DNA from: a virus
Reading direction: 5' to 3' (one strand)
DNA length: 64,000 nt
IMG/VR virus record: IMGVR_UViG_3300035660_000006
The translations under genes and the position numbers were made by a program. Within the stretch, counting starts at the first letter, position 1, and every line of letters begins with the position of its first letter. The notes below the pieces were generated by a model, which was given only the letters and a program-made list of their open reading frames with translations, was not told where the DNA came from and did not search any database. Of this stretch, positions 15,315 to 58,361 are shown piece by piece.

Positions 15315-16442
15315 ATGGAAATAATAATAGATGAAGAATTTCATAATTTAATTCCACCTTTACACGAAGAAGAGTTTAAGCAACTCGAAGAAAGTGTAAT
15401 AAAAGAAGGGTGTCGAGATGTTTTAGTTTTATGGGGTAAAATATTACTTGATGGACATAATAGATATGAAATTTGCTCAAAGAACAACATTCCTTTTAAG
15501 ACAACACAAAAAGAATTCAAAGACAGGAACGAAGCAAAAATATGGATAATTCAAAACCAATTTGGAAGGAGAAACATTAACGCTTATCAAAAATCTGTTC
15601 TCGCTATAAAATTAAAATCTATTTTTGAAGAGATTGCCAAAAAAAACATTTCTTTAAGTGGTGGAGATAAAAAAAGTGAAGAATATAAATCAGGTTTGAC
15701 GAAATCATCAAAGCCGATTGAATCGATTCATACAAGAAAAGAACTCTCAAAAATAGCCCATGTTTCAGAAGACACTATTCAAAAAGTTGAAAAAATTGAA
15801 AAGGAAGCAACGAAGGAAGAAAAAAAAGAATTAGTAGAAGGGAAAGCATCAATTAATGAGATTTATATGAAAGTTCGCAGAAAGAATAGAGTTATATCAC
15901 AAACACCACCATTACCAGAAGGTAAATTCAACATACTTTACGCAGACCCACCATACAAATATGATTTCTCTTTAACTGTTAGCAGAGAGATAGCACAAAA
16001 TTATCCAGATATGGATACAGACGATATTTGTGCTTTGAAAGATAAGTTGCCAGTAGATGATAATGTTGTATTATTACTCTGGTGTCCAGCCCCAAAACTA
16101 AAAGATGGATTAAGGATTATGCAGGAATGGGGTTTCACTTACAAAACCCATGCTGTTTGGGACAAGGAAATAATAGGCATGGGTTATTGGTTTAGGTCGC
16201 AACACGAATTACTTTTGCTCGGTGTGAAAGGAAATTTTTCTCCACCAGACCCAAGCAGTCTTTTTAGTTCAATTATAAGAGAAAAAAGAACTGAACACAG
16301 CAAGAAGCCAGAAAAAGTTTATGATATGATTGAGAAAATGTTCCCTCAAGGGAAATATTTAGAACTCTTTTCAAGAACTAAAAGAAACAATTGGACAGGT
16401 TGGGGGTTAGATTATCCAAGTGGTAATAATGGGCAGAAATGA
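15315..16442 (+). CDS. ParB-like nuclease domain fused to N6-adenine DNA methyltransferase (MT-A70/DPPY type)
   Basis: N-terminal ParB-N fold (DGHNRYEIC); C-terminal ILYADPPYKYDF DPPY motif plus HAVWDKEIIGMGYWFRSQHELLLLGVKG. Confidence 0.8.
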   Translation: MEIIIDEEFHNLIPPLHEEEFKQLEESVIKEGCRDVLVLWGKILLDGHNRYEICSKNNIPFKTTQKEFKDRNEAKIWIIQNQFGRRNINAYQKSVLAIKLKSIFEEIAKKNISLSGGDKKSEEYKSGLTKSSKPIESIHTRKELSKIAHVSEDTIQKVEKIEKEATKEEKKELVEGKASINEIYMKVRRKNRVISQTPPLPEGKFNILYADPPYKYDFSLTVSREIAQNYPDMDTDDICALKDKLPVDDNVVLLLWCPAPKLKDGLRIMQEWGFTYKTHAVWDKEIIGMGYWFRSQHELLLLGVKGNFSPPDPSSLFSSIIREKRTEHSKKPEKVYDMIEKMFPQGKYLELFSRTKRNNWTGWGLDYPSGNNGQK

Positions 16443-17688: not shown

Positions 17689-18633
17689 TTACTTTTTAAA
17701 ACTAATTCCACTCAATGTTGGGTCAAGGATTACATCAATTCCCATCAATCTGTTGACAGTCTTTGCAACTTCTGTCATGAAATCATACCAGTCGGTTGTT
17801 GGCAACATTCTTCTGTCGAAACCAAATTTATCTGCATCTTCCCTGTAAGAAAGTGAACCTTTGCCTATGCATTCATTGATTGCACTGATTGTTTTGTCTG
17901 CATCAACTCTTGACTTCTCAAATTTTAGAATGACTTGTCCCATAGTTTTTTTAGGCTCTTCAATTATAATTGGCTCTGGTCTACTTCTAAGAGCAGTCTC
18001 TTTTGTAATGATTGGAGACCATTCCCTGTTCATTATCCTTACTTTTCTGCTTAATTTTGCTATAGAATAAATTGCTGTTGAAGATAAATCGAATTTTTTA
18101 CCTGCATTCTCCCAACATTCATAAGGATTTTTATTTAGATAATTAACAATTTTTTCATTCCTTTCATTAATCCAATCCATGCTTCTGCCTGTTCTGACTC
18201 TATGTCCACCAGCACTGCCGAGTTTTTGACCTTTCATCCAGTCATAAAAAGTAGTATAACTGACATTAATGATTTTTCCTATTTTTTCCATAGTGGCTTC
18301 TGGGTGCAAACTTTTGTAACTTTTAACATAATTGATTACATCCCTTTTAAGTTGGTAACTATAATTTCTTGGTCTTTTTGAACCTTTTTGTCTGTCTGCT
18401 TCTTTTACTCCATCTTTTACTTTCAAGAACAAATCATTCAGTTGTTTTTTATCAAGAGTTGGTCTTCTGCTTGGAGTGACCGAAAAGGGTGGCACTCTAC
18501 CCCCAATTGTTGGTGGTTTATATGGTTCAAGAACAACAACCTTATTATCATCTTTTTCCTTAAAAGAACCCAGAACAGCAGTAATTTTGTCCATACTATC
18601 CATGTTAGTATCCAATTCTATTGTAATTTTCAT
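17689..18633 (-). CDS. HTH domain protein (314 aa)
   Basis: HTH-like segments (EATMEKIGKIINVSYTTFYDWMKG); first gene of the minus-strand block. Confidence 0.5.
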   Translation of the reverse strand: MKITIELDTNMDSMDKITAVLGSFKEKDDNKVVVLEPYKPPTIGGRVPPFSVTPSRRPTLDKKQLNDLFLKVKDGVKEADRQKGSKRPRNYSYQLKRDVINYVKSYKSLHPEATMEKIGKIINVSYTTFYDWMKGQKLGSAGGHRVRTGRSMDWINERNEKIVNYLNKNPYECWENAGKKFDLSSTAIYSIAKLSRKVRIMNREWSPIITKETALRSRPEPIIIEEPKKTMGQVILKFEKSRVDADKTISAINECIGKGSLSYREDADKFGFDRRMLPTTDWYDFMTEVAKTVNRLMGIDVILDPTLSGISFKK

Positions 18634-18938: not shown

Positions 18939-19283
18939 TTAAATTCGTTCTACTTTATACAATTCTGGAATGTATTCCCAATGACTACACTCATCGAGGA
19001 TATACCATGTCCCATCATCAGATTGAACAATACATTCTATGTCGCAATAGACAAGACCAGAATGTTCAAGAGCATTAACTATCTCTATGGCTAACTCTTC
19101 CCAACTATGTTGCTGGTTTTCTTGTATCCAGACTTTTCCAGTTTTGGTATTTGTGACCTTTAATTTTTTAGACACATATTGTTTTTCGATACATTCTGGA
19201 CATTCTAAACATGCTCTGACAACAGTATTATCTGGAACTCCTGTGCTTACAACTTTTCCACAATTATTACAAGTTAATCTCAC
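18939..19283 (-). CDS. zinc-ribbon protein (114 aa)
   Basis: CNNCGK...CLECPEC. Confidence 0.5.
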   Translation of the reverse strand: MRLTCNNCGKVVSTGVPDNTVVRACLECPECIEKQYVSKKLKVTNTKTGKVWIQENQQHSWEELAIEIVNALEHSGLVYCDIECIVQSDDGTWYILDECSHWEYIPELYKVERI

Positions 19284-19516
19284 TTATTATCACCTAAAAG
19301 TTCTTTCTTGAATTGTTGAATTAATTTATTAATTTCATCATAAATTTTATTTTCTCCTTTGTGAATTATTTTTTCTATTTCCTTGTTTTCTGTTATTTTT
19401 GTTGTAGAAATTGTTAGTTTTCTATCTTTCTCAATATTTTTAATTAAAGTTTCTATCTTCTCAGATAGAAATTGGTTATTTCTTTCTTGGTCATCAAGCA
19501 TTTGTTTTAAGTTCAT
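19280..19516 (-). CDS. small coiled-coil protein
   Basis: heptad-like K/E-rich sequence. Confidence 0.4.
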   Translation of the reverse strand: MNLKQMLDDQERNNQFLSEKIETLIKNIEKDRKLTISTTKITENKEIEKIIHKGENKIYDEINKLIQQFKKELLGDNK

Positions 19517-20106
19517 TTATTTTCACCATTTTTTTCTATAATCATCTCAACGTCTGATTTAAAATCCCTAAAATCTTTACCTTCAAAAATCCATTCAGTT
19601 AATTTTTTATAATAATCACCCATAATCACAAAATTAGTCGGACAAATAACAGGGTCGCATTTAAAAACCAAATTTTCCCCATCAAAATATCTCACACCCA
19701 ACACTTCAATTTTTTCAGGTCTGACTGCGACATTACCCAAATAATGCAAACTGTTTATCCAAAAATGTTTCCAATCTTCCATATTCACTTTATCCAATTC
19801 TTCTTGTGTATAAGATACAGATAACTTCATGTCTTTTGGTGTTTTAACTTTTTGGTTCTTAATAATAATCATCAAAAAATCGTCTTCTGGGTAGCAATCA
19901 TCACTATCAACTTCAACTTTCACCAGAGCAAACTTGTCTCCTTTCGTTGATTTCATACAATAAAAAGGTGCATAAGCAGAACTCAAATAAACAAATCCTT
20001 TTTTACTTTTTATATTCCAATTATATTTCGTATCAGTAACAAAACCTTCCTTCTCTATTTTCTTTGCGTTTTCTTCTGATGTTCCATGATATAAAATTAA
20101 TTTCAT
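19513..20106 (-). CDS. ADP-ribosyltransferase-fold protein (Tpt1/KptA-like H-G-T motif)
   Basis: N-terminus LILYHGTSEENAKKIEKEGF...GFVYLSS...FALVKVEV matches the KptA C-lobe pattern FLYHGTAS..IKKQGL..YVHLS..ILTVKA. Confidence 0.45.
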   Translation of the reverse strand: MKLILYHGTSEENAKKIEKEGFVTDTKYNWNIKSKKGFVYLSSAYAPFYCMKSTKGDKFALVKVEVDSDDCYPEDDFLMIIIKNQKVKTPKDMKLSVSYTQEELDKVNMEDWKHFWINSLHYLGNVAVRPEKIEVLGVRYFDGENLVFKCDPVICPTNFVIMGDYYKKLTEWIFEGKDFRDFKSDVEMIIEKNGENK

Positions 20107-20231
20107 TTCATCGCCTCAACAAATTCTTTCCAGTCTTCTTTTATTTTTTCCTTTTCTATGGTTATGAAAAGGGATTTCATTGCAACAAGTTTACAAATTG
20201 CCTTGTTTTTAGGGTTTCTAATCCTTAACAT

Positions 20232-21063: not shown

Positions 21064-23058
21064 TTATTCACCACCATTAAAACCATAACTCACTTTTTTC
21101 AAAATTTTCTCGTAAAGTTTGACAATTCCATCTTTCAATTCTTCACCATCTTTAGCGATGATAAAATTATCCTTACCATAGATGTTTTCAAAATACATTC
21201 TATAATTTGCATTATCCTGACCAAAAAATATTCCAAAGATATGAATGCCTTTTTCTCTTGTCAATTTCACTTTTTCTTGTGTAAGAATACTTTCATCTGC
21301 CATCCCATCTGTAATTGTGAATATTATTTTCAACTCATCTTCTACTTCTTCTAATTTTTTTGTTGCAATAACAGTTGCCTGTGCAGTTGGAGTTCCACCC
21401 CCTGCTGTCAATCCATTGATTCTTCTAACATCAAGTTCATCATCCCATTTCTTGACAAGAAAATCATTATAACCCTCAAATCCTCTTATAGCAAACTTCA
21501 CACCAAGAGTCTCGAAGACCTTACCTAAAATGTAAGTTGTTTCTTTTGAATTGGACAACTTTACTTTATTGCTGATTAAGTTTCCTGTTATCTTATCATA
21601 AACAGAATCCATTTGCCCCATACTTCCAGAGCAATCTATCATCAATATGACCGAATGTTCTGGTGTCTCGATAAGTTCCTTCTCATAAATATGATTATCA
21701 AATTCACCATCAATGTTATATTTGACAAAACTTCTGACTGCACTCTTCAACTTCAATTTACCAGTTGTCTGGTCTCCAACTAATGTTCTTCCTATTATTA
21801 TCCTGTTCTTCAATTCTTGTGAAATCATATCGGCAGTAGAATCAGCCCTGCTTGTATTGAATTTACTTTCATAACCTTTTCTTGGAATATTCAAACTTAG
21901 ACCAGCACCATCAGAATCCATGAATTCCTTCTCTAATTTTTCTGTTTCATCCCCTGCTTTCATTCTTATCTGTCTTTCAATCTTTTCTTGAGAAGTATAT
22001 TCATCCTTGAATTTTTCCTTGATAATCTTGACAAATTTATCTATTTTATCCTGCGATTTCATAATTTCTGGGCTACTCTGGTCATCCTCATCCTTATCAT
22101 CATCTTCACTTTCTTCTTCACTTTTTCCATCTTCTTCACGTTCCTCTTCACTTTGTTCACTTTCTTCATCTTTATATTCTTCTTCCTCGCTTTCATCGGA
22201 GTCGGAATCATCACTGTCTAACATTTCCTCAAATTCTTTTTTGAATTTATCAAATTCTTTCTCAATCTTCTTTGTTTCTTCCTTAGATAATTTTGATTTA
22301 TCTTTTTTACCACTGAAGTCAAACTCTTGGTCTTGGGTTTTTCCAACACCATTATCACTCTTGTTATTTCTTGTTGAATTCATTTTACTTGTTTCTTGAC
22401 TTGGCAAATCTTTAATCAAAACATCATAAATATCAAGTGCTATCTTAACACAACCCTCAAAGTCTTGGTATATCACATCTTTTGAAATCTTAATCAATTT
22501 TTCCATTAATTTTCTCTCAGGATACAATGTTTTGAATCCCCTCAACTCAAGACTTAATGAATATAAAACATCAGTAATCATTCTATTTTTTTCCATCAAT
22601 GCTAACTTATGGAAGAATGAAAGACTAAAACCAAGAAGTTCTGGACAGCCCCTATACAAATTCATACCAAGAAATTCTATCCTTACATCTTCAATAGAAT
22701 TCAAACACATCTTTAACAAATTCCAATCAATATTATATGAAGAAGGTCTTAATTTATTGACAATTCTTTTCGCATTACCAGTAAATAAAATATGAAAAGC
22801 CTCATGCAAGGATATACCTTTTTTGAGAATCCAATCAACAAAAGAATCAGAGGGAAATATTTGTCTGGGTAAAAATATTTGATTAGACTTTATGTTTGAA
22901 TAAGGAGTCTTACTCCCAAAAATAACCCTGACATTTCCCTTCTTGGTTAAAGTTTGGGTAAGGATTGACAATACATCAATCTGGCTATCTTCCCTTATAT
23001 CTTGGACTACATTATCTATTATATCCTTCATGTGTTCAAGTTTGTATTTGTCAATCAT
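21064..23058 (-). CDS. von Willebrand factor A (vWA) domain protein with acidic low-complexity linker (CbbO/NorD-like)
   Basis: C-terminal MIDAS VILMIDCSGSMG (DxSxS); long D/E/S-rich tract; overlaps the stop of the MoxR gene. Confidence 0.8.
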   Translation of the reverse strand: MIDKYKLEHMKDIIDNVVQDIREDSQIDVLSILTQTLTKKGNVRVIFGSKTPYSNIKSNQIFLPRQIFPSDSFVDWILKKGISLHEAFHILFTGNAKRIVNKLRPSSYNIDWNLLKMCLNSIEDVRIEFLGMNLYRGCPELLGFSLSFFHKLALMEKNRMITDVLYSLSLELRGFKTLYPERKLMEKLIKISKDVIYQDFEGCVKIALDIYDVLIKDLPSQETSKMNSTRNNKSDNGVGKTQDQEFDFSGKKDKSKLSKEETKKIEKEFDKFKKEFEEMLDSDDSDSDESEEEEYKDEESEQSEEEREEDGKSEEESEDDDKDEDDQSSPEIMKSQDKIDKFVKIIKEKFKDEYTSQEKIERQIRMKAGDETEKLEKEFMDSDGAGLSLNIPRKGYESKFNTSRADSTADMISQELKNRIIIGRTLVGDQTTGKLKLKSAVRSFVKYNIDGEFDNHIYEKELIETPEHSVILMIDCSGSMGQMDSVYDKITGNLISNKVKLSNSKETTYILGKVFETLGVKFAIRGFEGYNDFLVKKWDDELDVRRINGLTAGGGTPTAQATVIATKKLEEVEDELKIIFTITDGMADESILTQEKVKLTREKGIHIFGIFFGQDNANYRMYFENIYGKDNFIIAKDGEELKDGIVKLYEKILKKVSYGFNGGE

Positions 23059-24317
23059 GCATTCTCACTCTCTTCTTCTTTACCCTGATTTAAAATTTCT
23101 TCATATCCTAATTTTCCTTCCATTACTGCTTCTGCAACTGACATCAATCCACTTCTGACTGTCTCATCATCTGAAAGTTTCAAGGCAATAGAGTGTTTGA
23201 ATGAAGTTAGCACTGTCGCTTTTTCCTGAATATATCCATCACTTTTTATCTTGAGCAACTTCACCCAAGATTCTGCTTCTCTTGAAGATATTTGCAATTT
23301 CTCATATCTCTGTCTTATCAGACCTATTGTCTTTGCAATTTGTTCAGCCAATTTTTCTGGCACATCATGTTTTTTCATCAAAATCATTTTTTGCCTTATT
23401 TCTTTTGGATGGCTGAAATAGAACTCTGCGTCTATCCTTGATTTAAGTGCTGGTATCAATGGTTTAATGAATGCAAGTGGATTCATAGTCAAGAAAACTA
23501 CCAAGTTAGGATTTCTCACAACTTCCCCACCCTTATCTTCGAGAATTATTTCCCTTCTCTCATCAAGCAAGGAGTAGAAAATTGATTGGTGTTCTCTCTG
23601 CATGAAATTCACTTCTTCTATCTGTAACCAACAATCATTCTTCAATGCTGTGGTTATCAGACCATCAACCCACTCGGTAATTATTTCACCCTTCTCATCT
23701 CTTCTGATAACATACTTACCCTTCAATTCCTGTGCTTCTGTGTTAACTGTCACATTTACTCTTATAATTGGTTTTTTGTATTTCCATTGTAGATACTTGA
23801 TAAGAGTTGTCTTACCTGTTCCTGCTTCACCTTTGAACAAAAGAGCAGTGGTATCGTTGTTTTCAAGAATCCTCTCTATTGTTGTTAGATTTCTATCAAC
23901 ATCATAGAATAAGGGTTTTTCGATTGGTGGTTCAATATAACAAGCCTTGTATTTAACATCACCAACTTCGAGTTCAGTTTGTTGAACTACTGGAGAAGGT
24001 TGAGGTTGCTGAACTGCAACTTGTGTTTGTGGTTGTATTTGTTGGTTCACTTTTTTCACTTTTTGTGCAACTTGTGTTTGTTGTGTTGCAACATGGTTTG
24101 TATGACCTGACTTCGCTTCGTATCTTTGCCTGTCGTAAAATTTTTTACAATCCTTACAATAGGCAATCTTAGGAAGTTTAGGATTTTTCCCACATTTGGG
24201 ACAAATTTCAATTTGCTGTTTTCCTTTCATTTTCTCATCCCCATTCATTATTTGAATACAACGAATACTATGAATACATAAGGTTAAATACTTTACTGAG
24301 GGTAAAAAATACCCCAT
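23055..24317 (-). CDS. MoxR-family AAA+ ATPase (CbbQ/NorQ-like) with N-terminal zinc ribbon and Q-rich linker
   Basis: Walker A GEAGTGKTT; Walker B WLQIEEVN; CPKCGK...CKDCKK; real start probably an internal Met. Confidence 0.8.
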   Translation of the reverse strand: MGYFLPSVKYLTLCIHSIRCIQIMNGDEKMKGKQQIEICPKCGKNPKLPKIAYCKDCKKFYDRQRYEAKSGHTNHVATQQTQVAQKVKKVNQQIQPQTQVAVQQPQPSPVVQQTELEVGDVKYKACYIEPPIEKPLFYDVDRNLTTIERILENNDTTALLFKGEAGTGKTTLIKYLQWKYKKPIIRVNVTVNTEAQELKGKYVIRRDEKGEIITEWVDGLITTALKNDCWLQIEEVNFMQREHQSIFYSLLDERREIILEDKGGEVVRNPNLVVFLTMNPLAFIKPLIPALKSRIDAEFYFSHPKEIRQKMILMKKHDVPEKLAEQIAKTIGLIRQRYEKLQISSREAESWVKLLKIKSDGYIQEKATVLTSFKHSIALKLSDDETVRSGLMSVAEAVMEGKLGYEEILNQGKEEESENA

Positions 24318-34380: not shown

Positions 34381-35499
34381 ATGTTAAAAAATATAAATAT
34401 GACTACAAAGGTTATAAAATGTGGTGTTGTCGGTCTAACCAACAATAAAAAAGAATGTTTGGACAGTGAATGGTCTAACTTTCAAGATTTTCTACAACTG
34501 AAAAATACTCTTTGGTGGAAGAATGATTGGGGTAAGAACATCTATTCTGCCAACAAACAACAGGCAGAAAGGTTCTACAAATCAATAGAGGAAGGAAAGG
34601 AATACCCAATTTCAATCAGAAAAGACCTAATACAGATTGAAAAAAAGGATACAAAACTCGCTAAATATTGGTTCAGAATGAGAGTTAAGTCAAAAAGAAA
34701 TCTATGGTTGGCAATAAAACCACACCAACCAATCTCTGATGATGTTGAATTTCAAGAGAGTAAATTACTTAAAAAGAATGGTCAATACTTCATCTATCTT
34801 ACTATTCAAAAGGAAATCAAAATAAAAAAATCATACTCAAACATACTCTCCATAGATTTAGGAGTGAAATGGATTGCTACTGTCTGTGACATGAAATCCA
34901 AAAGACCTGTTTTCTATGGGAAAGAGTTGAGAGGAATTAGAGGAAAACATTTCTATCTAAGAAGGAAAATTCAAAAGAAAAAGATAAGACAAATGGGAAA
35001 GTGGTTGGAAAATAACAAAGAAGAAAGAATAGTGAATGACTTAATACATAAAATTTCAAGAGATATTGTCAATAAAGCAAAGGAAACAAACTCCATGATT
35101 TGTTGGGGTGATATAAAAGGAATAAGGAAAAACAACAAAGGAAGAAAGTTCAACAGGAAATTGAATAGTTTTCCATTCTACAAATTGAAAGAGCAAATCA
35201 GATACAAAGCAGAATGGGAAGGAATAAAAGTTGTTGAAATTAGCGAAGCATGGACATCACAAATTTGTAATAAATGTAGTGAGAAGGGAACAAGAAATAA
35301 AGGTTTGTTCAAATGTAATAGTTGTGGATATGAGGATAATTCAGATAGGAATGGTAGTCTAAACATAGGCAAACGAGTTCTTGGGCAAGTCTCAAGAATA
35401 GGGGTATCTGTGAATATACCCAAAACTGAAGCAGAAAACATAAAGAATACAAAAATTAGAAATTCAGTAAGCGACTTCAGAAGCCACCTATTTCAATAG
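34381..35499 (+). CDS. tnpB: TnpB (IS200/IS605 OrfB) RNA-guided nuclease family, solo
   Basis: RuvC-I SIDLGVKWIATV; zinc finger CNKCSEKG...CNSCGYEDNSDRNGSLNIGKR; RuvC-III. Confidence 0.85.
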   Translation: MLKNINMTTKVIKCGVVGLTNNKKECLDSEWSNFQDFLQLKNTLWWKNDWGKNIYSANKQQAERFYKSIEEGKEYPISIRKDLIQIEKKDTKLAKYWFRMRVKSKRNLWLAIKPHQPISDDVEFQESKLLKKNGQYFIYLTIQKEIKIKKSYSNILSIDLGVKWIATVCDMKSKRPVFYGKELRGIRGKHFYLRRKIQKKKIRQMGKWLENNKEERIVNDLIHKISRDIVNKAKETNSMICWGDIKGIRKNNKGRKFNRKLNSFPFYKLKEQIRYKAEWEGIKVVEISEAWTSQICNKCSEKGTRNKGLFKCNSCGYEDNSDRNGSLNIGKRVLGQVSRIGVSVNIPKTEAENIKNTKIRNSVSDFRSHLFQ

Positions 35500-57063: not shown

Positions 57064-57387
57064 TTGAAGAGATTGGAATTTATTAAAAATAATACTTCAA
57101 CAAAATTAAACACACCATATTTTATTATTGTTCATAGCATAGCAAGAAACATGGCAAGACCATTAACATTCCCAATTGAAGTCAAGACTGGGAAAAGACA
57201 GACAAGGGAATTTGAACTCGGAGAACTCATTCAAGAATTAGAGGAAGCACATATTAAAATTAACGAGATAGAACAGCAGATTGCCCAGAATTATTCAATA
57301 GATATTCCACTCAACCAGCAAGGACAGGCTATTGTATTTGATTTCAATAATCCAAAGCAAGGTATGGAAGACAGATTCAAATTTTAA
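57064..57387 (+). CDS. hypothetical protein upstream of the endonuclease gene
   Basis: ORF. Confidence 0.4.
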   Translation: MKRLEFIKNNTSTKLNTPYFIIVHSIARNMARPLTFPIEVKTGKRQTREFELGELIQELEEAHIKINEIEQQIAQNYSIDIPLNQQGQAIVFDFNNPKQGMEDRFKF

Positions 57388-58361
57388 TGGTGAAAAAAAC
57401 GAATTGCAAAGAAATAAAAATTAATAGAGAAGAATTATTTAAAAAATATGTTATTGAAAAAAAATCAACACCAAAAATTGCTAATGAGGTTAATAGTAAT
57501 AGAGAAACAATTAGAAAACTTTTACATTTTTATAAAATACCAATTAAAATACCTATTAAAGAAACAATCAGTAAAGAAGAATTAGAAAAATTATATATTA
57601 ATAAAAAAATGTCTTGTAACGAAATAGCAGAAAAATTTAAAACTAATAGAGAAACTATAAGAAAATTACTTCATTTTTATAAAATTAAAATACAACCTTC
57701 TTCAGAAAGATTGAAAGGTAATAAATTTATGTTAGGTAAAAAACATTCAGAAGAAACTAAGATAAAAATAAGTCTTAAACATAAAGGTAAAAAATGTCCC
57801 TTTTTATCAGAATACAATAAAAAATATAAAAGTCAACAAATGAAAGAAAGATGGGAGAACCCATTTTATAGGAAACAACAATCTGAAAGTATGAAAAAAA
57901 ATAATCCAATGAAAAATCCAATTTTTAGAAAAAAGGTTAGTTTGTCAAAAATTGGAGATAAAAACCCATGTAAAAGACCTGAAGTAAAAGAAAAACTAAG
58001 AAAATTTAGAATGACACAAAAATTTCCTTTAAAAAATACAACAATTGAAACATTATTACAGAATGAACTTGAAAAAAGAAACATTCAATTTACTCCTCAT
58101 AAAACAATTTTAAATATAACACAACCAGATGTTTTTATCGAACCAAACATTTGTGTTTATTGTGATGGAGATTTTTGGCATAGTAATCCTAAATTTTATG
58201 ATAGAAATAATTTGAAATATAAAAGTCAAATAAACAATTTAAAAAATGATGAAAAAAATAATATAATTTTAAAAGAAAATAACTATAAAGTTTTTAGATT
58301 TTGGGAAAATGATATTTTAAATAATGTTTCAAAATGTGTAGAAGAGATAATAAATAATTGA
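57387..58361 (+). CDS. homing-endonuclease-like protein: HTH repeats plus NUMOD3 motifs plus Vsr/DUF559-like domain
   Basis: duplicated NRETIRKLLHFYKI; NUMOD3-like HSEETKIKIS...NPMKNPIFRKKVS; C-terminal CVYCDGDFWHSNP...RFWEND. Confidence 0.65.
   Translation: MVKKTNCKEIKINREELFKKYVIEKKSTPKIANEVNSNRETIRKLLHFYKIPIKIPIKETISKEELEKLYINKKMSCNEIAEKFKTNRETIRKLLHFYKIKIQPSSERLKGNKFMLGKKHSEETKIKISLKHKGKKCPFLSEYNKKYKSQQMKERWENPFYRKQQSESMKKNNPMKNPIFRKKVSLSKIGDKNPCKRPEVKEKLRKFRMTQKFPLKNTTIETLLQNELEKRNIQFTPHKTILNITQPDVFIEPNICVYCDGDFWHSNPKFYDRNNLKYKSQINNLKNDEKNNIILKENNYKVFRFWENDILNNVSKCVEEIINN

Follow-up and report, generated by a model that had tools for sequence, protein, structure and literature searches.

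A stand-alone ADP-ribosyltransferase-fold protein from an IMG/VR virus record, with a Tpt1-like first half and a putative acidic active site

Introduction

Which kind of protein is encoded at positions 19513-20106 of a 64,000-nucleotide stretch of the IMG/VR virus record IMGVR_UViG_3300035660_000006, and is it likely to act as an enzyme? An earlier note, made from the DNA alone, had read the open reading frame (ORF) at this locus as a relative of the NAD+-binding lobe of the RNA 2'-phosphotransferase Tpt1/KptA, possibly a diverged enzyme or a binder of NAD+ or ADP-ribose. Our analysis of this stretch, here called the window and used for all coordinates unless another locus is named, shows that the encoded protein (the window protein) belongs to the ADP-ribosyltransferase (ART) superfamily and consists of a single, stand-alone domain. 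We consider it probable that the protein is an active, diffusible ART effector that serves host takeover or counter-defence. ADP-ribosylation is a recurrent theme in the conflict between viruses and their hosts, exemplified by T4 Alt, ModA and ModB, AcrIF11, DarT and CmdT. An ART superfamily enzyme on a mobile or viral element is thus of a known kind, and the novelty of the present case lies at the level of a new family.

Results

Overall fold

The ORF is complete and runs on the minus strand, which the earlier note had left unstated, encoding 197 residues plus a stop codon from an ATG start. The strings quoted in that note, LILYHGTSEENAKKIEKEGF (residues 3-22), KGFVYLSS (residues 36-43) and FALVKVEV (residues 59-66), are all present in the translation. 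A word-indexed search of 5.8 billion proteins returned 77 homologues at E<=1e-3, nearly all of them full length (170-204 residues) and with identities down to 37%. An exhaustive search with a hidden Markov model (HMM) profile of the family gave 1300 cluster representatives (clusters at 50% identity) at the same threshold and 788 at E<=1e-10; most of the HMM matches among those listed cover profile positions from about 3 to 165. These 77 homologues and 1300 representatives establish the ORF as a real gene, far beyond what chance would produce. The best 150 of the 1300 representatives were taken in, and the comparisons described here use alignments of 44 close members, of 51 broad members and of 207 sequences, some of which are only about 25% identical to the window protein.

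An AlphaFold2 model computed from the 44-sequence alignment forms one domain, with a predicted local distance difference test score (pLDDT) of 93.9, a predicted TM-score of 0.88 and no segment with a pLDDT below 50. Its core is the split beta-sheet of ARTs, of a kind that can accommodate NAD+. Foldseek searches against the PDB return the ART fold with weak scores, and the top matches in BFVD are six paralogues of Bacillus phage G and a phage protein labelled 'PARP catalytic domain' (E 4e-6 to 2e-4). Structural relatives include the DarT, ParT, MbcT and RES toxins as well as PARP13 and the TASOR pseudo-PARP. Structure prediction and Foldseek therefore agree on the ART fold that the earlier note had proposed, rather than on the unrelated fold that it had set beforehand as the refuting outcome. 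Matches to armadillo-repeat entries of the PDB comprise a short 'SL..LGN(V/I)A' segment only (profile positions 114-142), aligned with designed repeat proteins, and were set aside as spurious.

The modeled chain passes from beta-1 (residues 2-10) through alpha-1 (11-20), beta-2 (39-42), alpha-2 (46-52), beta-3 (58-67) and beta-4 (71-73) into a group of helices (75-83, 101-105 and 109-123), and continues with beta-5 (125-128), beta-6 (134-142) and two further helices (156-174 and 185-195). Mean-field direct coupling analysis (DCA) of the 207 sequences, with an effective number of sequences (Meff) of 194, gives a consistent set of contacts. The top covarying pair, K63-V135, together with K58-D142, places beta-3 antiparallel to beta-6, and L3-C71 pairs beta-1 with beta-4. 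Couplings V64-V126, V66-V128, L41-V126 and F38-A127 position beta-5 beside beta-2 and beta-3, while A44-F159, A46-T170 and P47-I173 pack the C-terminal helix onto alpha-2. About half of the 45 best DCA pairs join residues 1-77 to residues 116-176. The region of roughly 110 residues that had been described as an extra C-terminal domain is consequently not a separate unit: the N-terminal half shows covariation with strands 125-142 and with helix 156-174, which belong to the same domain.

Conserved residues and candidate active site

Thirteen positions are at least 97% conserved in the 207 sequences, namely H7, G8, T9, G21, Y40, Y45, P73, D76, S119, G124, D151, N158 and Y166; of these, H7, G8, T9, Y40, Y45, P73 and D76 each reach 99%. 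W30 (95%) and S34 (94%) follow closely, and 99-100% of the sequences have an acidic residue at positions 74 and 75. At 3.42 bits per column, conservation in the family peaks in the segment P-[DE]-[ED]-D-[FY] (residues 73-77).

All elements described below lie on the minus strand. Strand beta-1 (20077-20103) carries the H7-G8-T9 motif (20080-20088), which is 99% conserved and aligns with the 'YHGT' of Tpt1; H7 is predicted to be the ART signature histidine that binds NAD+. The following loop, residues 21-38 (19993-20046), contains the conserved residues G21, N29, W30 and S34 (88-99%), and its position suggests equivalence to the donor (D) loop present in PARPs and Arr. Residues 39-49, forming beta-2 and the start of alpha-2 (19960-19992), read V-Y40-L-S-S-A-Y45-A-P-F-Y, with both tyrosines 99% conserved and VYLS aligned to the VHLS of Tpt1. 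The second ART signature position is a histidine in Tpt1 and a tyrosine in PARP, diphtheria toxin and Arr. After Y40 of beta-2, alpha-2 presents Y45 and an aromatic pair at positions 48 and 49.

The short strand beta-4 leads into an acidic triad within Y72-P73-E74-D75-D76-F77 (19876-19893), a segment that stands out by its conservation, its covariation and its spacing when compared with Arr. F48-D75 and E74-L123 covary, which brings the acidic motif near alpha-2 and near the segment ahead of beta-5; this fits a location at the base of the beta-4/beta-5 connection, beside the helix that would stack on nicotinamide. H7 and Y40 align with the two signature histidines of Tpt1, and the third position of the triad would be either D76 (99%) or N125 (72%). 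We propose H7, Y40 and D76 as an H-Y-D centre in which E74 and D75 may assist, a catalytic role that we derive from sequence conservation and from analogy with other ARTs.

Between beta-4 and beta-5 lies a helical insert, residues 78-118 (19753-19875), which the model builds with the helices 75-83, 101-105 and 109-123. From the acidic motif to S119, family members differ in length (22-56 residues), and conservation is lowest here (0.7-1.5 bits). By position, the insert matches the ARTT or acceptor loop of other ARTs, and by analogy it is presumed to act as a target-recognition module. It is followed by the pre-beta-5 and beta-5 segment S119...G124-N125-V-A-V128 (19723-19752), in which S119 is conserved to 98%, G124 to 100% and N125 to 72%, and by beta-6 (residues 134-142; 19681-19707), which both the model and covariation place antiparallel to beta-3. 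The segment D151-P152...N158...G163...Y166 with helix 156-174 (19585-19656) forms a layer on alpha-2, as indicated by covariation and by the conservation of D151 (98%), N158 (97%) and Y166 (99%). The C-terminal tail, residues 175-197 (19516-19584), is variable, with 0.88 bits, 35% gaps and a pLDDT of 72-85.

Relationship to Tpt1, PARP and Arr

For comparison with Tpt1 and Arr, we built family alignments from E. coli kptA, taken from the annotated K-12 genome, and from an Arr-3 sequence that is 100% identical to annotated plasmid arr-3 genes. In hhalign, for which E-values are pairwise, the Tpt1 alignment matches the broad family alignment with 92.8% probability (E 4e-7) and the 207-sequence alignment with 93.9% probability (E 1.6e-7). 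The match covers residues 2-67, from beta-1 (LYHGT) through alpha-1, beta-2 and alpha-2 to beta-3, and corresponds to KptA residues 100-155. The first half of the protein is thus closest to the Tpt1 NAD+ lobe, as had been read from the sequence. At the level of single sequences and domain models, this likeness is weak: the window protein matches the NCBIfam RNA 2'-phosphotransferase model with E 0.0027 and 17.3 bits (cut-off 231) and phrog_5470 (Tpt1) with E 0.08, and the Pfam PTS_2-RNA model gives 17-19 bits (threshold 26) in 2 of the 51 broad members. When the broad profile is searched against PDB sequences, archaeal Tpt1/KptA appears at E of about 1e-3, DarT1 at 0.016 and PARP10 at about 1.

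The absence of the Tpt1 N-terminal lobe with its catalytic Arg and His, also part of the original reading, extends across the family, in which a median of 6 residues precedes the signature histidine (6 in the window protein, more than 30 in only 9 of 207 members). The two-lobe architecture of Tpt1 is therefore absent: the winged-helix RNA lobe is missing, and the hhalign match begins at about KptA residue 100. The Arg-His-Arg-Arg tetrad is likewise incomplete. KptA R21, H22 and R69, which form invariant alignment columns, fall within the missing lobe, and a Lys or Arg at position 35 (72% of members) is the sole possible match for R125, in an alignment that is unstable between hhalign runs. Because the N-lobe is absent throughout, the family is not Tpt1. 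It further differs from the C-terminal NAD+ lobe of Tpt1/KptA (PF01885) in that the second signature histidine is replaced by tyrosine and the match stops at about residue 67, beyond which the window family adds the 22-56-residue helical insert and a conserved C-terminal helical layer.

PARP-like similarity is confined to the HGT region of the Pfam PARP profile (PF00644), with a best E of 4e-4 and 16-18 bits against 26.7. Sub-threshold PARP matches occur in 18 of the 44 close members; among the 51 broad members, five match PARP, two Tpt1 and one DarT, all below the gathering score. None of the 44 close or 51 broad members reaches the gathering score of any curated Pfam family. The catalytic glutamate of PARPs and toxins lies at the start of beta-5. 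Compared with PARP-type mono-ARTs (PARP15, PARP10 and PARP16; the H-Y-[E/I/L] clade), the window family lacks a glutamate at this position and carries the acidic triad after beta-4 instead, and the window protein has no accessory domains.

A mechanistic parallel is offered by Arr, whose catalytic triad consists of H19, Y49 and D84, with the Asp84 side chain hydrogen-bonded, through a water molecule, to the acceptor hydroxyl of rifampicin. The spacing of 30 and 35 residues between these positions compares with 33 and 36 between H7, Y40 and D76, and the Arr aspartate, like D76, sits within an acidic cluster (E-D-D). The window family differs from Arr (PF12120) by its insert and C-terminal layer and by its viral contexts, whereas Arr is found in resistance cassettes.

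Related viral proteins and annotation

Phage G encodes at least 10 ARTs, and most viral ARTs are fast-evolving and conflict-related (Iyer et al. 2022, PMC9503650). Among viral structures, the window protein is matched best by the phage G paralogues Gp336, Gp53, Gp532, Gp233, Gp251 and Gp568 (Foldseek E 4e-6 to 9e-5). TM-scores to these ARTs are only 0.37-0.50, and neither these paralogues nor PHROGs 13493 and 11974 have a known function. AcrIF11, an ART anti-CRISPR of phages and plasmids, is a functional analogue with a distant structural likeness; nothing in our analysis links the window family to CRISPR or to a specific target.

No model in Pfam, NCBIfam or PADLOC covers the family. The window protein alone has no match in the PADLOC scan or in Pfam and PDB sequence scans, and no Pfam domain is found in the 77 homologues. 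Among PHROGs, the window protein alone matches phrog_13493 at E 5e-4, and phrog_13493 and phrog_11974, both of unknown function, are matched by 38 and 14 of the 51 broad members, respectively; no functionally annotated PHROG is matched by the family above threshold. A tblastn search of 50,697 GenBank phage records returned no match for the window protein or for two distant members, a pattern scan of IMG/VR found one locus only, and literature searches found no paper naming the family. The JGI name 'diacylglycerol kinase family enzyme', attached to an identical protein (P0001) in metagenomes 3300035688 and 3300035701, is supported by none of our searches and looks like a mis-annotation.

Rare members carry N-terminal extensions, consisting of an SprT-like HExxH metallopeptidase module in P0107 (locus L085, 3676-4572) and of an unassigned region of about 260 residues in P0079. 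These architectures resemble those of 'polyvalent' anti-restriction proteins, and the P0107 locus, which also contains DUF932 and an SNF2 helicase, is a setting typical of anti-restriction regions.

Genomic context

We gathered 67 metagenomic loci, one IMG/VR locus and five loci from metagenome-assembled genomes (MAGs), together with exact-protein look-ups. All-against-all ORF clustering of 76 loci, which excluded those from MAGs, revealed no recurrent neighbour outside near-identical contigs, and the two largest clusters of apparent neighbours are antisense ORFs inside the ART gene itself. The lack of a conserved neighbour implies that the family has no cognate antitoxin, immunity protein or ADP-ribose hydrolase. 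The family lies in long runs of small phage-like genes on one strand, among which replication and modification genes are scattered (UvrD helicase, YopX, Ku and ligase, ribonucleotide reductase and SNF2); one distant member adjoins a type I restriction-modification system. We discarded a linkage to RNA repair, as ligase-like neighbours are sporadic (3 of about 70 loci). In loci L006 (2110-2613), L014 (2541-2933) and L082 (6854-7297), a gene like lambda Ea47 (PF26900) is found no more than a few kilobases from the ART gene. These instances amount to three distinct contexts (the P0029 contig L006/L045, L014, and the P0131 loci L082-L084), too few to be accepted as an association.

In the window, direct reading of the DNA against the ORF coordinates reveals a Shine-Dalgarno-like GAGG motif at 20114-20117 on the minus strand, 7 nucleotides 5' of the ATG. 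The start codon of the ART gene (20104-20106) shares the sequence ATGA with the stop codon of a 42-residue ORF upstream, and its stop codon (19513-19515) shares ATGA with the start codon of a 78-residue ORF downstream. These overlaps at both ends place the gene within a co-directional, translationally coupled string that extends from about 24317 to 17689.

The head of this string (21064-24317, minus strand) encodes a 420-residue AAA_5 ATPase (phrog_249, CobS-like, 'porphyrin biosynthesis') and then a 664-residue, CobT-like protein whose vWA domain is C-terminal and whose long acidic linker is rich in Glu, Asp and Ser. A functional link between the ART gene and this upstream CobS-like AAA+/vWA pair was rejected, as the pair is found only in near-identical contigs. 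Downstream of the ART gene, the same string encodes a 114-residue protein with an N-terminal zinc ribbon (CxxC...CxxC; 18939-19283, minus strand) and a 314-residue protein with helix-turn-helix motifs of the IS630 transposase type (17689-18633, minus strand; Pfam E 4e-5).

Elsewhere, the window encodes a ParB_N protein, a phage-type helicase, glycosyltransferases, homing endonucleases and a TnpB-like gene. An MT-A70-type DNA methyltransferase gene (15315-16442, plus strand; Pfam E 1e-19; phrog_21315 and phrog_359) is followed by ORFs of 177 and 242 residues, the latter with a zinc ribbon. At 34381-35499 and 57387-58361, both on the plus strand, are a TnpB/IS200-605-type transposase-like gene (phrog_506, E 1e-37) and an HNH/homing-endonuclease gene; with a LAGLIDADG_3 protein (Pfam E 6e-17) also present, the element carries several selfish nucleases. 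Further Pfam matches in the window are TFIIB- and LysW-type zinc ribbons, a PMT_2 glycosyltransferase, Cas4/PD-(D/E)XK, Band_7 and peptidase M50. No capsid, terminase or portal protein was recognised among the largest ORFs of the window, which contains no tRNA, and Pfam gave no match in it to macrodomain, ARH, NADAR or NAD-synthesis genes.

Homologous contigs have been binned in MAGs of Pacearchaeota, Heimdallarchaeota, Levybacteria (candidate phyla radiation, CPR) and Firmicutes. This binning, together with the TFIIB and LysW zinc ribbons and PMT_2, suggests that the host may be an archaeon or a CPR bacterium, and the element itself, rather than being a typical phage, may be a virus of archaea or CPR bacteria or some other mobile element.

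Discussion

Our preferred interpretation is that the window protein is an active stand-alone ART. In the mechanism that we envisage, NAD+ would sit in the cleft of the split beta-sheet, held by His7 and Gly8 of the H-G-T strand and by Tyr40 of beta-2, while Tyr45 and the aromatic pair 48/49 of alpha-2 would stack on the nicotinamide. The carboxylate of Asp76, in the acidic P-[DE]-[ED]-D motif, would stabilise the oxocarbenium and activate the acceptor. ADP-ribose would then be passed to an acceptor picked by the insert 78-118 and the C-terminal layer with D151, N158 and Y166. Acting on a host component during infection, such a diffusible effector would contribute to host takeover or counter-defence. 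The gene has no conserved partner and belongs to co-directional runs of small genes of the accessory, early and DNA-metabolism kinds; we consider it less likely that the protein modifies molecules of the element itself. We infer, rather than show, that the protein is catalytically competent, what D76 and the insert do, and which kind of molecule is the target.

Several observations weigh against this interpretation. The case for placing D76 at the C1'' atom of NAD is built on topology, analogy of motifs and covariation that is modest (Meff 194). Classically, the third residue opens beta-5, which here would make it N125, conserved in only 72% of sequences. Should N125 be the true equivalent, the centre would resemble those of the H-Y-x mono-ARTs or of Tpt1 (H-H-h), and the acidic triad may instead serve acceptor binding. 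The comparison with Arr stands as a mechanistic analogy only, since hhalign gives a non-significant probability of 2.9-4.5% and homology was accordingly rejected. The window protein is acidic, with an isoelectric point of 5.7 compared with a family median of 7.7; this argues weakly against a nucleic-acid target, without identifying the target, and for this member leans weakly towards a protein or small-molecule acceptor. Finally, the window is judged to be viral from its gene content only.

The same features bear on what else the protein might do. It could use NAD+ without being a macromolecule transferase, either as an NAD+ glycohydrolase or as a phosphate-directed enzyme resembling the Tpt1 C-lobe or the RES-domain NAD+ phosphorylases, in which case its products would be free ADP-ribose, ADP-ribose phosphate or capped nucleic-acid 5'/3'-phosphates. 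We regard this as unlikely: the RNA-binding N-lobe is missing as a whole, along with the three other tetrad residues, the alignment of residue 35 with the Tpt1 arginine changes between runs, depletion of NAD+ would be harmful to a replicating virus, and the hypervariable insert suggests recognition of an evolving macromolecular target. Somewhat less probable again is a catalytically dead ART fold that binds NAD+, ADP-ribose or a derived signal as a sponge or regulator. Pseudo-ARTs exist, with PARP13 and the TASOR pseudo-PARP among our structural matches, and where beta-5 begins the window family has N125 (72% conserved) and not the classical glutamate. In known pseudo-ARTs, the histidine is lost and/or the pocket is occluded. 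The window family, however, retains H-G-T, Y40 and Y45 at 99% and an always-acidic motif in sequences down to about 25% identity, a pattern typical of active enzymes.

A small-molecule ADP-ribosyltransferase that inactivates an antibiotic or metabolite, as Arr does, appears improbable given the 3-4% probability in profile comparison and the absence of a match to Pfam Arr-ms, and the viral accessory-gene context and hypervariable insert would be unexpected for a resistance enzyme. The DarT, ParT, MbcT and RES relatives and the distant member next to a type I restriction-modification system raise the question of whether the family instead supplies the toxin of a toxin-antitoxin or abortive-infection module. 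Modules of the DarTG, ParST and MbcTA/RES-Xre type pair the toxin with an adjacent antitoxin or ADP-ribose hydrolase, but no adjacent gene is conserved over the 76 loci, the window has no match to macrodomain, ARH or NADAR and none in PADLOC, and most contexts are phage-like gene strings; we consider such a role very improbable. There is a slighter chance still that the protein is a genuine RNA 2'-phosphotransferase for viral RNA repair, with the N-lobe function provided in trans. The Tpt1-like first half and the ligase-like genes near 3 of about 70 loci would agree with this, but a conserved partner is missing, the second signature histidine is a tyrosine, the ligase association is sporadic and the scores fall far below the cut-offs (17 versus 231 bits in NCBIfam; 17-19 versus 26 bits in Pfam).

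What sets the family apart, if it comprises active ARTs as we favour, is the combination of a Tpt1-like half domain without the RNA lobe, an acidic centre of the H-Y-D type and a variable insert at the ARTT position. A bolder proposal, which we put forward tentatively and with the balance against it, is that these proteins form a distinct virus-borne ART class, in which a Tpt1-derived NAD lobe has shed the RNA-binding lobe and gained instead an acidic H-Y-D centre and, at the ARTT position, a hypervariable helical module for specificity. Such a class would ADP-ribosylate a component of host defence or information processing (a protein, or else an end or base of a nucleic acid) as a general means of counter-defence, in hosts that possibly include archaea and CPR bacteria. 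We know of no viral ART effector characterised from archaea or CPR bacteria.

The family is large (1300 clusters at 50% identity) and well defined, yet has neither a functional annotation nor a BLAST-level relative in GenBank phage records. The fold assignment, together with residues H7, Y40, Y45, E74/D75/D76, S119, D151, N158 and Y166 and the variable module, turns a hypothetical protein into a testable candidate effector. Should it prove to be merely another protein-modifying ART, the advance would be incremental; one more viral ART would be no surprise to a specialist. If its target is a defence system or a nucleic acid, however, the family would represent a new enzymatic form of counter-defence and would show how the NAD lobe of a housekeeping RNA-repair enzyme, Tpt1, has been re-tooled.

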